Source of the DNA: Trueperaceae bacterium
GTDB lineage: Bacteria; Deinococcota; Deinococci; Deinococcales; Trueperaceae
DNA length: 20,148 nucleotides
NCBI GenBank assembly: GCA_040905465.1
Contig: JBBDRK010000033.1
Location: forward strand, 1 to 20,148
Direction of reading: 5' to 3'
Below the pieces are notes generated by a model. That model made no database searches, was not told the DNA's origin, and saw only the letters and a program-made list of their open reading frames with translations. Positions 13,199 to 18,324 of this stretch are shown here, one piece after another. Each line of letters begins with the position of its first letter. The stretch's first letter is position 1. The position numbers and the translations under genes are program-made.

Positions 13199-15022
13199 CT
13201 ACTCCACCGTCACGCTCTTGGCCAGGTTGCGTGGCTGGTCGACGTCGCGACCGAGCCGGTGGGCGGTCTCGTAGGCGAGGAGCTGCAGCGCCACGACGTT
13301 CACGATCGGCGAGAGCAGCTCCAATGTCTCGGGAACCCGGATCACGTGGTCGGCATGGGCGCATATCACGCTGTCATCCGGGTTCGCCAAGGCGATCACC
13401 ACTCCGTCGCGAGCTCGCACCTCCTGCAGGTTGGAAACCGTCTTGTCGTAGAGCCCGGAACGGGTGGCCACGGCAACGACCGGCATGCTCTCGTCTATCA
13501 GCGCTATCGGGCCGTGCTTCATCTCACCGGTGGCGTAGGCTTCGGCGTGGATGTAGGAGATCTCCTTGAGCTTGAGAGCACCCTCGAGCGCCGTCGGGTA
13601 ATTGACGCCTCGTCCCAGGAACAGGTAATCGCGCCTGTCCTTGAACGCCTCGGCAACGGCCGCAATTTGCGGTCTCCCTGCCAGGGCCTCGTCCACCAGC
13701 GACGGCACGCGCCGCAGTTCACCGAGGAGCACGGTGGCATCGGCCGCGCTCAGGGTTCCGCGCCGCCGTCCCAGCCAGACGGCCAACAGTTCGAACGCCA
13801 CCAGCATCGCGGTGTACGCCTTGGTGCTGGCAACGCCGATCTCCGGACCCGCATGAATATAGAGGGTGTCGTCTACCTCGCGACTGATGGTCGAGCCCTT
13901 GGCATTGAGGATCGCCAGGCTGCGGGCTCCCCGGCGGCGTGCTTCGCGCAGCGCCTCCAGGGTGTCTATCGTTTCGCCCGATTGCGAGACCACCACGCAC
14001 AGCGTGCGTTCGTCGATGACCGGCTCTCGGTAGCGGAACTCCGAAGCGACCTCCACCTCCACCGGCAGCCGGGCGAGCCGCTCGATTAGATACTCGCCCA
14101 CCAGTCCGGAGTAGTAGGCCGTGCCGGCGGCGGTTATCACGACCCGGTCGATATCGCCGGCGTCCAGGCTCAGGCCGAGATCGACGTCGCTGTCGTCTGC
14201 CACGATTCGGCCGCCGAGCGTGTCCTGCAGTACTCGCGGCTGCTCGTAGATCTCCTTGAGCATGTAGTGCTCGTAGCCACCCTTTTCGGCGGCCTCAGCG
14301 TCCCACTCGATCTTGCCGGGAGGTCGGTCAAGCGGCCGGCCCTGGAAGTCGGTGATGGTCACACCATCGGGCGTAAGCAACGCCATGTCGCCGTCGTGCA
14401 GGAATATCACATCGCGGGTATAGGGCAGCAGCGCCGGTACGTCGGAGGCCACGAACGTCTCCCCGTCGCCGAGACCGATGACCATCGGACTGGTAGATCG
14501 GGCCGCCACTATCAGCCGATGCTCGCTATGCGACACCACTACCGCATAGGCCCCGACCACTTCGCTCAGCGCGGCCCGCACGGCCTCCACCAGGTCGCCC
14601 CGGTAGTGCTCCTCGATGAGGTGGACCATCACTTCGCTGTCGGTCTCCGACGCGAAAGAGTGTCCTGCTGTCTGCAGACGCCCTTTCAACTCCAGGTAGT
14701 TCTCGATGATGCCGTTGTGGATGAGGCCGAGCCGGCCGTCCTCGGACAGGTGCGGATGGGCGTTGCCGTCGCTAGGGCGGCCGTGCGTGGCCCAGCGGGT
14801 ATGCCCCAGGCCCAGCGAACCGGGCAGCGCCTGTCCGCTCAACGCCTCGCGCAAGACGCTGAGCTTGCCCGCGCGCTTCACCACCTCCAGCGACAGATTG
14901 CCGTTGCCGCCGGCGATCACTACGCCGGCTGAGTCGTAACCTCGGTATTCCAGTCGTTGCAACCCGTCGAGTATCACCTCGGTGGCCTGCCTGTGTCCTA
15001 CGTATCCGACGATTCCGCACAT
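13199..15022 (-). CDS. glmS: Glutamine--fructose-6-phosphate aminotransferase (isomerizing)
   Basis: N-terminal MCGIVG, LEYRGYDSAG, GHTRWATHG, HNGIIENY, SQSGET, GVASTKAY, EGALKLKEISY, C-terminal DQPRNLAKSVTVE. Confidence 0.99.
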   Translation of the reverse strand: MCGIVGYVGHRQATEVILDGLQRLEYRGYDSAGVVIAGGNGNLSLEVVKRAGKLSVLREALSGQALPGSLGLGHTRWATHGRPSDGNAHPHLSEDGRLGLIHNGIIENYLELKGRLQTAGHSFASETDSEVMVHLIEEHYRGDLVEAVRAALSEVVGAYAVVVSHSEHRLIVAARSTSPMVIGLGDGETFVASDVPALLPYTRDVIFLHDGDMALLTPDGVTITDFQGRPLDRPPGKIEWDAEAAEKGGYEHYMLKEIYEQPRVLQDTLGGRIVADDSDVDLGLSLDAGDIDRVVITAAGTAYYSGLVGEYLIERLARLPVEVEVASEFRYREPVIDERTLCVVVSQSGETIDTLEALREARRRGARSLAILNAKGSTISREVDDTLYIHAGPEIGVASTKAYTAMLVAFELLAVWLGRRRGTLSAADATVLLGELRRVPSLVDEALAGRPQIAAVAEAFKDRRDYLFLGRGVNYPTALEGALKLKEISYIHAEAYATGEMKHGPIALIDESMPVVAVATRSGLYDKTVSNLQEVRARDGVVIALANPDDSVICAHADHVIRVPETLELLSPIVNVVALQLLAYETAHRLGRDVDQPRNLAKSVTVE

Positions 15023-15034
15023 TTTCGTTCTGGC

Positions 15035-15414
15035 TCCGATCCCTCAACCGCCGCGAGGATGCGACGGCCCAGCGCGCCCCTGGAGGCGCTGCTACGCTAT
15101 TGATCGGCGCGCCTTGCCGGCTGCGCCCATTGCGAATGCTTGCTGGCCGGGCGGTGAACCCGGATACGACCCATGGAATCGCGAGTGAGGGGTCGGCTCA
15201 GGAGGGGCCCGCAGACTTGTGCGCCTCTCGACGCGCTCGCGTTTTCGGTGCCGTGCACCTATCTTCCTGTGTCCCTCTTTATTCGGGACCGGAAGCCCTC
15301 CACCTCGTCACCTGGCAAACTGATGCGTGTGTGGCGCATCTACGCACTTTGATGCGCGTGGGGCGCATCTACGCTATCCGATGCGTCTTGCCTCAGAGCG
15401 CCAGGGCTTGCGCT
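15035..15414 (-). ncRNA. glmS ribozyme (GlcN6P-activated self-cleaving riboswitch), expanded structural variant; 3' boundary approximate
   Basis: In the glmS 5' UTR, minus strand. Cleavage motif A^GCGCAAG (A-1 = 15414). P1 CCUGG/CCAGG (15405-15401 with 15315-15311). GACGAGG at 15309-15303. P2 GGAGGG/CCCUCC (15301-15296 with 15206-15201). UCGAG at 15231-15227. P2.2 3' strand CUGCGGG (15214-15208) with compensatory A5-U instead of C-G. P3-like CGACCC/GGGUCG. Confidence 0.9.
15321..15385. repeat. Tandem 29-nt-period repeat (2 full copies plus a partial one) of a GATGCG-N7-CGCATC hairpin inside the ribozyme P1 loop
   Basis: tgatgcgtgtgtggcgcatctacgc (15321-15345) vs tgatgcgcgtggggcgcatctacgc (15350-15374), 23/25 identical; third gatgcg at 15380. 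Confidence 0.85.
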
Positions 15415-15439
15415 ACCTCGCGAAAGGATTCGTCCTCCC

Positions 15440-15970
15440 TCACCTCCCTTCCCAAGGCTCCCCGATCACCAGGTAGGAGTGAAGGGCCTCGAGAACCGGC
15501 CGCCTGGAAGGGTCGATGTCGCCCTGTGCGGCCAGCAATGGATAGAGCAAGATATCACGGCCCTCGCGGAACACCCGTGAGCCTCGCACGGCGGGCGCCA
15601 CCAGCGCCGGCACTCCGTGCGGCGGGTAGACGAGTTGATTCGCCGAATTGCGCTCGAGCGGCAACGACACGGACGCGCTCAGCACCAGCGCTGCGCCGAG
15701 GAGCCCGCCACCGAAGCCGCCCAGCAGGGTAAGCACTACCGGCGCGAAACGACGCTGGCGGCCGAGCCTGCGCGCGCCCAAGGCGAGCGCCAGGCCGGCA
15801 ACCAGCGCAACCGCCACCGCCAGCAGCGGGCTCGCCTGGCCGAGCAGCAGGAGCGGGCGCAGCAACAGCGCGCCGCCCACGCCCAGCAACAGGCCGCCCA
15901 GCCGGCGCTCAGCCCCTAGGGCAATGAACACGGCGAACAGCAGCGCCAGCAGGAGATCGATCCAGGTCAT
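15440..15970 (-). CDS. Hypothetical multi-pass membrane protein with CvpA-like N-terminus (176 aa)
   Basis: ATG overlaps the pheT stop (ATGA). MTWIDLLLALLFAVFIALGAERR resembles CvpA starts; about 4 hydrophobic segments. Confidence 0.75.
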   Translation of the reverse strand: MTWIDLLLALLFAVFIALGAERRLGGLLLGVGGALLLRPLLLLGQASPLLAVAVALVAGLALALGARRLGRQRRFAPVVLTLLGGFGGGLLGAALVLSASVSLPLERNSANQLVYPPHGVPALVAPAVRGSRVFREGRDILLYPLLAAQGDIDPSRRPVLEALHSYLVIGEPWEGR

Positions 15971-18324
15971 CTGTCGCGAATATCGTAGCCATCCCGGCGA
16001 AGGGCGCTCATGACATTCTCCATATAGCCGTCTATCTCGTCGTCGCGCAACGCCCGCTCCGGGTGACGAAAGCGAAGGCGCAGAGCCAGGCTGCGCTTCC
16101 CCTCAGGTATCGGCACTCCGGTGTATACGTCGAACGGCTCCAGCGAGTCCAGCAGTTCACCTGCGGATCCCCGCACCACGCGGCTCAACTGCAAGTAGCT
16201 CACCTCCAGCGGCGCCACCACCGACACGTCGCGCTCGGCGTGCTGCTGGCGCGGCGGTTCCACGTAGCGCACGGATCCCGAAGGGAGCGGCAGATCGAGC
16301 TCCGCCACGAAAACGTCGCCGAGTTCGTAGCGGGCGGCGATCTCTGGGTGCAGACGGCCGGCGCTGCCGACCCTGCGTCCGTCCCAGAGCACTTCCGCCG
16401 CTATGCCAGGGTGCAGATGTGCCGCCGAATGCGGGAGCATCTCGAGTTTGACGTTGCGCCGCTCGGCCAGGCTCTCCAGCAGGCCCTTGAACAGATAGAA
16501 ATCCAACTCCCTGCCGGCCTGCCAGCCGGGCTCCTGCCATGGTCCGCGGGCGAGCAGCGCAACGCGTTCCTGCTCGTCTTCGAGGAACACCCGGCCGATC
16601 TCGAACAGTGCCAGCGAGGTTGCGGCGCGGTTGAACGCAGCCGCAGCCAGCAGCCCCGGGTAGAGGGCGGTGCGTAGCACGCTGCGCTCCACGCCTTGCG
16701 GGTTGGCCAGGCGCACCCTCGCCTCGGGAGCGCCAGCTCGTGCCAACTCGGCATTGGAGGAGAACACGTAGGCTATCGATTCGCTGAACCCCAGGCCGGC
16801 GATCTGGCTACTTATGTCTCGGTGGGTCGGGTCGGTGCTCTTGGGCACGAAGTGCATCACCGGCACGGTCTCCCCCACGTGCTCGTAGCCGTGGAGGCGG
16901 CCGACCTCTTCCACCAGGTCCTCCTCGATCGCCAGGTCGACGCGCCAGGTGGGCGCCGTGACCAGCCAACTGTCCTCTCCCCGGTCCGTCGCCGGTTGCT
17001 CCTCAACGGTGCAGCCGAGCGCTTCGAGGTAGCGCCGCTGCTCGGCGAGAGGCACGTCGAAATCCATCAGGAACTCCACCCGGGAAGGCCGGAAGGGCAT
17101 CGCCACCCGGCGACCGTAGCCGCCGACCGTGCTCACGCCTTCGTGTACGTTGCCCCCAGCCACGGCGACCATCAACTCGCTCGCCCGGGCGGACGCCGAC
17201 GGTGGCAGGGCCGGATCGACGCCTCGCTCGAAGCGATAGTGCGCGTCGGTGGATAAGGCGTGGCGCTTGGCAGTGCGCCTGATCGTCAACGGGTCGAAGT
17301 GGGCGACCTCCAGGGCGATGGAGGTGGTGCCCGCCTCCACGCTTTCGTGCAGGCCGCCGATTACACCGGCCAGGCCGATGGCTTTCGAGCCCTCGGCGGC
17401 CGGGGTAGCGATCACCAGATCGGCCGATTCGAGCTCGAGTTCGTCACCGACCAGCGTAGTCAGACGCTCGCCGGCCTCGGCCGGCCGAACCTGTATCTTG
17501 CCGCCGCCCAGCGTCTCGGCGTCGTAGGCATGCGAAGGCTGACCGAGCTCGAAGGTGACGTAGTTGGTGACGTCCACGACGTTGTTGCGTGGCCGCAGGC
17601 CAACGCTGGCAAGCCGGCGCTGCAGCCAGATCGGGCTCGGACCCACCCGCACACCGTCAACCTTGCGCAGCGTGAAAAGCGGGCAGCCGCCGGGATCCGC
17701 GATTTCTATCGCAAGGCCATCGTCGACGTTCGGATTCCCTGTGTCGAGACCTTCCGCCGGGTTCCTGTAGGCCACCTTCAGCTTGGCGGCAAGGTCGCGC
17801 GCCACCCCGAGGATGCTGAAGGCGTCCGCCCGATTGGGAGTGAGCTCGAGCTCGAGGACGTCGTCCCCGGGCCAGAGGCGGGCCAGGTCGCTACCCGGTT
17901 CGAGTTCCGCGGCGAGCTCGACCAGCCCGCCGGCGTGGTCGAAGACGCCCAGCTCGCGCGGGGAGAGGAGTATGCCGCTGCTCTGCAGGCCGGCCATCTC
18001 GCGCGCCTCCACGGTCACTCCCAGCGCCGGCAGCTCGACGCCCGGCGCCGCGAACGCAGTCACCATTCCCCGGCGTGCATTTGGCGCGCCGGTGACCACC
18101 TGATGGCGGCGCTTGCCGTCGAATGCCGTGGCCAGCCGCAGGTGCTCGGAGCCGGCTACCGGCTCCACCGACTCGAGCAGCACCGCCACCGTTCCCGCCG
18201 TCGCTCCCTCATAGCGGTGAATCGCCTCCGTCGACAGCCCCAGGCCGTCGCACAAGGCGGCAAGTTCCTCCGCCGGCGGAAGGTGCTCGATAAACTCCCC
18301 GAGCCAGCTGTACGGAACTCTCAT
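15967..18324 (-). CDS. pheT: Phenylalanine--tRNA ligase beta subunit
   Basis: MRVPYSWL, GAPN, ELTPNRADAFS, NNVVDVTNY, HYRFERGVD, PTWRVDLAIEEDLVEEVGRLHGY, FEIGRVF, C-terminal FDX-ACB-like FDVYTG...GKRSLA. Confidence 0.98.
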   Translation of the reverse strand: MRVPYSWLGEFIEHLPPAEELAALCDGLGLSTEAIHRYEGATAGTVAVLLESVEPVAGSEHLRLATAFDGKRRHQVVTGAPNARRGMVTAFAAPGVELPALGVTVEAREMAGLQSSGILLSPRELGVFDHAGGLVELAAELEPGSDLARLWPGDDVLELELTPNRADAFSILGVARDLAAKLKVAYRNPAEGLDTGNPNVDDGLAIEIADPGGCPLFTLRKVDGVRVGPSPIWLQRRLASVGLRPRNNVVDVTNYVTFELGQPSHAYDAETLGGGKIQVRPAEAGERLTTLVGDELELESADLVIATPAAEGSKAIGLAGVIGGLHESVEAGTTSIALEVAHFDPLTIRRTAKRHALSTDAHYRFERGVDPALPPSASARASELMVAVAGGNVHEGVSTVGGYGRRVAMPFRPSRVEFLMDFDVPLAEQRRYLEALGCTVEEQPATDRGEDSWLVTAPTWRVDLAIEEDLVEEVGRLHGYEHVGETVPVMHFVPKSTDPTHRDISSQIAGLGFSESIAYVFSSNAELARAGAPEARVRLANPQGVERSVLRTALYPGLLAAAAFNRAATSLALFEIGRVFLEDEQERVALLARGPWQEPGWQAGRELDFYLFKGLLESLAERRNVKLEMLPHSAAHLHPGIAAEVLWDGRRVGSAGRLHPEIAARYELGDVFVAELDLPLPSGSVRYVEPPRQQHAERDVSVVAPLEVSYLQLSRVVRGSAGELLDSLEPFDVYTGVPIPEGKRSLALRLRFRHPERALRDDEIDGYMENVMSALRRDGYDIRDR

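Follow-up and report, generated by a model that had tools for sequence, protein, structure and literature searches.

A remodelled glmS ribozyme leader predicted as the normal design of the family Trueperaceae

The canonical glmS ribozyme, catalogued as Rfam family RF00234 and represented by the RNAs of Bacillus subtilis, B. anthracis, and Thermoanaerobacter tengcongensis, is a self-cleaving element of the glmS mRNA. Work by Winkler 2004 and Collins 2007, cited in PMC5473149, is said to be the basis of the canonical scheme, which comprises glucosamine-6-phosphate (GlcN6P)-dependent cleavage, an mRNA with a 5'-OH, decay by RNase J, and feedback. McCown, Roth and Breaker 2011 (RNA 17:728) reportedly described Deinococcus-Thermus variants of this ribozyme whose catalytic core contains extra stems and whose core-supporting substructures are altered. 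For the B. subtilis ribozyme, an excerpt of one study gives the core residues as A37, C38, G39, A40, and the catalytic G42, which equals G40 of the T. tengcongensis ribozyme, and the P2.1 pairs as C38-G55 and G39-C54 (PMC11602151). The same excerpt describes docking of a purine stack of the P4 internal loop on P2.1, stabilisation of P2.1 by P4, and slowing of the ribozyme by an A68U change near the cofactor site; it also cites earlier studies in which P4 was dispensable for cleavage (PMC11602151).

The window analysed here is the whole 20,148-nucleotide stretch of Trueperaceae DNA, and it carries, immediately 5' of glmS at 15163..15426 of the (-) strand, all of the core motifs of the glmS ribozyme in the correct order, as read from the sequence. 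We consider it very probable that this element is a glmS ribozyme-riboswitch of a build used throughout the Trueperaceae, with predicted cleavage. Its gene neighbourhood is as follows:

13199..15022, (-) strand: glmS coding sequence, 607 amino acids, matching TIGR01135 at 817 bits (cut-off 418) and the Pfam domains GATase_6 and SIS
15440..15970, (-) strand: ORF of 176 amino acids between pheT and the ribozyme, with no Pfam or NCBIfam match
15967..18324, (-) strand: pheT, upstream of glmS

The spacer between the 176-aa ORF and glmS measures 417 nt and contains the ribozyme. The stop codon of this ORF lies about 10 nt ahead of the ribozyme leader, which holds the 5' strand of a helix here designated P0 (15422..15417), and the 3' part of a comparable ORF can likewise be seen upstream of glmS at other loci of the family. 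A promoter scan of 14950..16050 found no sigma-70-like site, and the single-sequence folding energy of the window was unremarkable and not significant (z -1.44). By analogy with the canonical system, abundant GlcN6P would bind the preformed core as a cleavage cofactor and cleavage would occur between A15414 and G15413; the glmS mRNA downstream of the cut would be left with a 5'-OH and would be degraded by RNase J, a homologue of which is encoded in the genome (match to TIGR00649 at 536 bits, cut-off 400), and GlmS synthesis would fall, completing a negative feedback loop.

The comparison covered the window's own family, Trueperaceae (f1), and four other families of the same order (f2–f5). glmS was located in 57 of 61 f1 genomes; 54 leaders were read and three more ran off contig ends. 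The design seen in the window is present in 46 of these 54 leaders. The collection of 51 unique copies used below comprises these 46 leaders plus five copies from a scan of contigs (among the matches listed), three duplicates having been removed, and includes one copy from an unpublished genome (L026). That scan employed a 17-letter pattern, and among the matches listed 8 of the 80 loci inspected were true copies; most were chance matches in GC-rich genomes, and the scan carries little information on distribution. The shared layout begins with a leader hexamer (mostly CUCGAG), two nucleotides, the cleavage motif A|GCGCAAG, P1, GACGAGG, and the P2 strand GGAGGG; it continues with hairpin A, AUA, hairpin B, GAAAAY, GCGA, and a segment that often forms a third hairpin. 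The 3' part consists of UGCGG, GC, CCCUCC, P3 (mostly UGAG/CUCA, with an ACCC-like loop end), and a hexamer complementary to the leader, followed by a linker, 1–10 nt long in most copies, and finally by the complement of the P3 loop, which forms P3.1. In the window, the core elements are:

15413..15414, (-) strand: predicted cleavage site between A-1 (15414) and G1 (15413), where AGCGC aligns to the Rfam consensus aAGCGCC and to a family covariance model, R1
15409..15412, (-) strand: 5' strand of P2.2, CGCA, complementary to UGCG at 15213..15210 and nearly invariant in the family
15310..15406, (-) strand: P1, 97 nt, with a base helix CCUGGC/GCCAGG around a branched insert, the base pairs covarying
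15303..15309, (-) strand: GACGAGG core, holding the 5' strand of P2.1 (CG) and the equivalent of the catalytic G at 15303
15296..15301, (-) strand: 5' strand of P2, GGAGGG, pairing with 15206..15201
15237..15240, (-) strand: GCGA, the likely 3' strand of P2.1, whose CG pairs with the CG of GACGAGG
15201..15213, (-) strand: 3' strand of P2.2 (UGCG, 15213..15210), a GGC junction, and the 3' strand of P2 (CCCUCC, 15206..15201)

An earlier, sequence-only reading of this DNA had put the distance from the cleavage site to the AUG at about 390 nt; counted from A-1 to the glmS ATG, which starts at 15022, it is 392 nt, a location in the 5' UTR as in RF00234. That reading had also listed the core elements as occurring in order, and all of the motifs are indeed present. 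The hexanucleotide ACGAGG is invariant in 51 of 51 family copies, the preceding base being mostly G, with C in three. The proposed equivalent of the catalytic G40 at 15303 is consistent with the residue pattern in the excerpt of the B. subtilis study, which GACGAGG fits with its last G as the catalytic residue (PMC11602151). P2 is paired in 100% of cells and shows rare double changes that preserve pairing (AU in 2/50 and 1/50 copies). The UGCGG motif stands at 15213..15209, and the A5-U pair that had been singled out as a compensatory feature of P2.2 does exist, since CGCA (15412..15409) is complementary to UGCG (15213..15210). It places A and U on partner strands where the Rfam consensus has C and G, a double-sided change, but it is not special to this copy, being found in 45 of 50 family copies and also in L004 and L005 of the same order.

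One part of the earlier listing did not stand, namely the use of UCGAG (15231..15227) as the 3' strand of P2.1. This pentanucleotide falls in the loop of a weak and variable hairpin, TCGAG occurs there in just 2 of 51 copies, and two copies from the window's own genus differ at this place. What is conserved instead is GCGA (50 copies) or UCGA (one copy), which follows an A-rich run at the corresponding position in 51 of 51 copies; L005, a same-order, Deinococcus-like ribozyme aligned by RF00234, likewise reads GCGA at the P2.1 position. Judged by this conservation, the P2.1 strand, and the homologue of the consensus uCGA, is more likely the GCGA at 15240..15237. A separate observation concerns L033, in which the A-rich run and GCGA occur in three tandem copies about 95 nt after GACGAGG, giving three candidate P2.1 strands.

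Around this core, the insertions and the rebuilt periphery of the window copy comprise the following features:

15263..15295, (-) strand: hairpin A, inserted in the P2 loop, CUUCC-G-GUCCC...GGGAC-ACA-GGAAG, forming a hairpin in all 51 copies
15247..15259, (-) strand: hairpin B, GGUGC-ACG-GCACC, after a conserved AUA (15262..15260) and before GAAAAC (15246..15241)
15216..15236, (-) strand: weak hairpin C, the variable segment between P2.1 and P2.2, which contains the UCGAG at 15231..15227
15186..15200, (-) strand: P3 hairpin, UGAG/CUCA, with the loop CGACCC (15195..15190) as the 5' strand of P3.1
15167..15172, (-) strand: 3' strand of P3.1, GGGUCG, complementary to the P3 loop CGACCC
15417..15422, (-) strand: 5' strand of P0, CGCGAG, in the leader 2 nt upstream of A-1 and complementary to 15185..15180
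15180..15185, (-) strand: 3' strand of P0, CUCGCG, immediately after P3, where the Rfam model places P4
15147..15163, (-) strand: 3' hairpin, CCGGGU/GCCCGG, after P3.1, frequent but not universal in the family

Hairpins A (15295..15263) and B (15259..15247) are exactly as first described. Taking GCGA as the P2.1 strand, the insertion between P2 and P2.1 is about 55 nt (15295..15241) and not the 64 nt (15295-15232) given before, and the linker from G53 to C60 is 23 nt and not 14; both of the former figures are probably wrong, as they were derived from the UCGAG assignment. The portrayal of this copy as an extreme variant has likewise to be revised, because all of the 51 parsed copies have the two-hairpin insertion, which makes it normal for the family, and that of the window, at 56 nt, lies below the family median of 64 (range 37–199), with 36 of 51 copies longer (a count that includes L026). 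The segment between P2.1 and P2.2 runs from 5 to 79 nt across the family (median 24) and reaches 18 nt or more in 37 of 51 copies; it is 21 nt in the window, where the complete joint from P2.1 to P2.2 amounts to about 23 nt. The more general claim, that a glmS ribozyme variant with extra core stems precedes glmS, is borne out. The extra hairpins of this remodelled glmS leader are, on comparison of the predicted elements, the normal design of the whole family Trueperaceae, and the window copy is an ordinary family member apart from its long P1.

This P1, together with P0 and the absence of P4, had gone unmentioned in the sequence-only reading, and it is the sole expansion specific to the window copy. 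At 97 nt, as against a family median of 32, the P1 segment is the second longest of 51 (range 16–153), and its insert contains a 29-nt tandem repeat in 2.5 copies at 15315..15386 (-). Two copies from the same genus have P1 segments of 30 and 63 nt without the 29-nt repeat, and no copy of the repeat was found elsewhere in the 3.53-Mb genome. A dispersed genomic repeat as the source of the P1 motif was rejected, the copies being purely local in a 29-nt tandem array. The 97-nt P1 with its tandem repeat is probably a species-specific, neutral expansion of a peripheral helix. Elsewhere in the family, the same sites hold far larger expansions than in the window, with P2-loop insertions of 189 and 199 nt in L022 and L029 and a P1 of 153 nt in L037.

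Covariation among the family 5' UTRs, a check to which the sequence-only reading had pointed, supports the proposed helices. A plain MAFFT alignment of 39 copies (A1; 402 columns, not fitted to structure), which leaves out the window's genus, the unpublished copy L026, and the 8 longest copies, was supplied with a structure of 40 pairs. In this alignment, 90.9% of cells pair, compared with 33–51% when partners are slid by 1–3 columns, and double-sided changes occur in 25 of the 40 pairs, with 0 of 500 shuffles matching the observed values; the copies are kin and not independent, and these figures are descriptive rather than probabilities. Pairs changed on both sides number 4 of 6 in P0, 4 of 5 in P1 (95.9% of cells paired), 5 of 5 in hairpin A, 3 of 3 in hairpin B, 4 of 4 in P3, 4 of 5 in P3.1, and 1 of 6 in P2. 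Only 70.5% of cells pair in P3.1 on account of alignment slippage. The complementarity of the double pseudoknot is present, with P2.2 paired in 97.4% of cells and P2.1 in 100%; because the pairs of both helices are almost invariant, with none changed on both sides, they carry no covariation within the family and speak to consistency only. A separate anchored parse of 50 copies gave the same picture, its paired fractions being inflated because the registers of hairpins A and B, P3.1, and P0 were set by best pairing.

In the window the P4/P4.1 domain is absent, the interval from P3 to P3.1 being 13 nt (15185..15173), of which 6 belong to P0, and the family copies leave no room for P4. This is compatible with membership in the glmS ribozyme class, since earlier studies cited in the excerpt of PMC11602151 found P4 to be dispensable for cleavage. 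P0 also forms in the single-sequence minimum-free-energy fold of the window, and its position 5 among 50 copies is UA in 23, GC in 9, CG in 4, and AU in 4. The 6-bp P0 helix joins a leader strand lying 2 nt ahead of the scissile phosphate to the strand that follows P3. A tentative proposal, which we hold as possible yet rather doubtful, is that the Trueperaceae build constitutes an undescribed glmS architecture in which P0 replaces P4, A-rich joints around hairpins A and B take over the minor-groove support that P2.1 receives from P4 in the canonical fold, and P0 might gate activity. The conserved AUA and GAAAAY joints may, in such an architecture, replace the purine stack of the P4 internal loop, and the exchange of P4 for P0 is the part that might be new; if true, it would be a natural case of a leader forming part of the glmS ribozyme fold. 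Relocation of a peripheral element may account for the hairpin after P3.1. A hairpin with a GGG/CCC stem was scored there in at least 18 of 51 copies by a rough search, which evidently overlooked some examples, and ACC occurs in 14 of the 43 hairpin loops that the search for hairpins after P3.1 picked.

The same departures could be taken to signify a glmS-derived ribozyme with altered regulation, that is, one that is constitutive, has a different or weaker cofactor need, or is gated by the leader through P0 versus a competing pairing with CGAG, a reading that we judge unlikely. The junction preceding the 3' strand of P2, next to P2.2, reads GGC in the window against GaUG in the Rfam consensus, and it differs from that consensus in every family copy; A68 of the B. 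subtilis ribozyme would map to this junction. Use of the ligand could differ on that account, given the slowing by A68U in the excerpt of the B. subtilis study, where P4, absent here, is also reported to stabilise P2.1 (PMC11602151). On the family alignment, unguided RNAalifold finds P1, P2, P3, and both of the hairpins A and B, but it pairs the 3' CUCG (within 15180..15185) with the CGAG of GACGAGG (15304..15307) and not with the leader as in P0, which makes this alternative a possible competing fold. The CUCG/CGAG pairing is, however, invariant, with 0 double changes, whereas P0 covaries, and the P0 sequences UUUGGG/CCCAAG of L036 and UUCGGG/CCCGAA of the f5 copy L191 cannot pair with CGAG. 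P0 is preferred over the alternative on these grounds, namely that the alternative lacks covariation and is impossible in L036 and L191, both of which keep P0. The strict association of the element with glmS, moreover, is a prediction of GlcN6P feedback.

Returning to the predicted GlcN6P-responsive ribozyme, the covariance-model searches place it within the wider family. The expectation that a standard model would score this copy poorly proved correct: RF00234 matched nothing in the window at the gathering score (37 bits), nothing at E<=10 on 14900..15600, and nothing in the entire 3.53-Mb assembly. The family model R1 (205 positions, 29 pairs), built from 25 copies, none of them from the window's genus, gave a single match in the window at 15163..15426 (-), covering model positions 1-205 of 205, with 143.4 bits and an E value of 4.2e-43. 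When RF00234 was run on 40 relatives of the same order, it matched 4 of 4 genomes in f5 (43–49 bits) and 4 of 4 in f2 (32–36 bits), 0 of 4 in each of f3 and f4, and 7 of 24 in f1 at 15–26 bits, where none exceeded the cut-off and several of the weak matches fell at the glmS leader. Weak full-length matches to RF00234 coincide with R1 sites in G013 (25.6 bits), G006 (22.6), G023 (19.4), and G002 (14.7). In a scan of 150 further genomes of the order, R1 detected the element in 29 of 36 f1 genomes (mostly 92–162 bits), 8 of 19 in f5 (26–58 bits), 6 of 36 in f2 (26–34 bits), 0 of 23 in f3, and 0 of 36 in f4. The sites found by R1 and RF00234 coincide in L004 and L005 (42.8 and 35.6 bits) and also in L191, L192, and L193, and these shared match sites form a series of homologues that links the Trueperaceae build to the canonical family. 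Sequence comparison has shown homology to the canonical glmS ribozyme throughout the core, which comprises P1, P2, and the strands of the P2.1 and P2.2 pseudoknots.

Failure of RF00234, together with the large insertions in the P1 and P2 loops, might suggest an inactive relic, a decayed ribozyme retained merely as a structured leader, and the element is indeed lost altogether in 8 of 54 family leaders (L027, L046, L172, L175, L176, L185, L188, and L189), in which no ribozyme motifs were found within 700 nt upstream of glmS. These element-free leaders look like lineage-specific loss; in genus g11, R1 finds the element in 2 of 7 genomes. In several element-free f1 leaders, an upstream ORF extends nearly to glmS. 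Decay is nonetheless very improbable for the copies that remain, since the invariance of the core motifs over 51 copies from many genera and the compensatory changes in the helices indicate purifying selection on the fold, and the window scores like the others (143 bits, with most family matches at 92–162). A further reading, in which a structured leader of an unrelated kind (a protein-binding site, for instance, or a different class of riboswitch) shares short glmS motifs by chance, has the failure of the Rfam model as its sole point in favour. It is scarcely credible, given that the core motifs are all present, correctly ordered and spaced and with complementary strands for P2.2 and P2.1, and that canonical ribozymes of the same order and the family model recognise one another. 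The window copy is, by these predictions, a genuine member of a lineage-wide variant within a known ribozyme class.

One practical outcome is that the glmS ribozyme of an entire family escapes the curated Rfam model, with 0 of 24 genomes above the cut-off compared with 29 of 36 detected by R1, and riboswitch censuses will for this reason under-count the Trueperaceae lineage. The family copies also represent natural experiments, from which it would appear that the core tolerates 37 to 199 nt in the P2 loop and dispenses with P4. The leader helix P0, for its part, offers a testable idea on how the periphery of a ribozyme can be rebuilt.

A search of the open full-text literature retrieved no description of Truepera or Deinococcus-Thermus glmS variants, and the excerpts of PMC2258182, PMC8637638, PMC5473149, and PMC10187678 contain nothing on a Truepera-type variant. 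The description by McCown, Roth and Breaker 2011 fits the design of the window, and their figures or supplement may already show it. The breadth documented here, with 51 copies from many uncultured genera, and the 97-nt P1 are certainly data later than theirs.

Set against the canonical ribozymes of B. subtilis, B. anthracis, and T. tengcongensis, the window element shares its location in the glmS 5' UTR, the AGCGC cleavage motif, P1, GACGAGG, and P2 with GGAGG/CCUCC, as well as P2.1 (CG/CG), the P2.2 strands, and the P3/P3.1 pseudoknot. It differs in the joint between P2 and P2.1, which is 4 nt in the canonical ribozyme and about 55 nt with two hairpins in the window, and in that between P2.1 and P2.2, about 7 nt in the former and about 23 nt in the latter. 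Further differences are the missing P4/P4.1, the added leader helix P0, a P2 longer by one pair, an A-U pair in P2.2 in place of the consensus C-G, the GGC junction for GaUG, and the lack of an RF00234 score. Among the relatives from other families, L191 (G134:C187:5090-5320; f5, genus g47) resembles the window in having hairpins A and B, both short, together with AUA, GAAAA-GCGA, and P0, and in lacking P4; at 157 nt it is an intermediate build, with scores of 29.3 bits for RF00234 and 58 bits for R1. L191, L192 (f5, genus g45), and the Deinococcus-like f2 copies L005 and L193 all possess the A5-U pair, as does the window. Unlike the window, these four retain the canonical GAUG junction and score 29–36 bits with RF00234, and L005 keeps P4, while L193 and L192 have a shortened P4.
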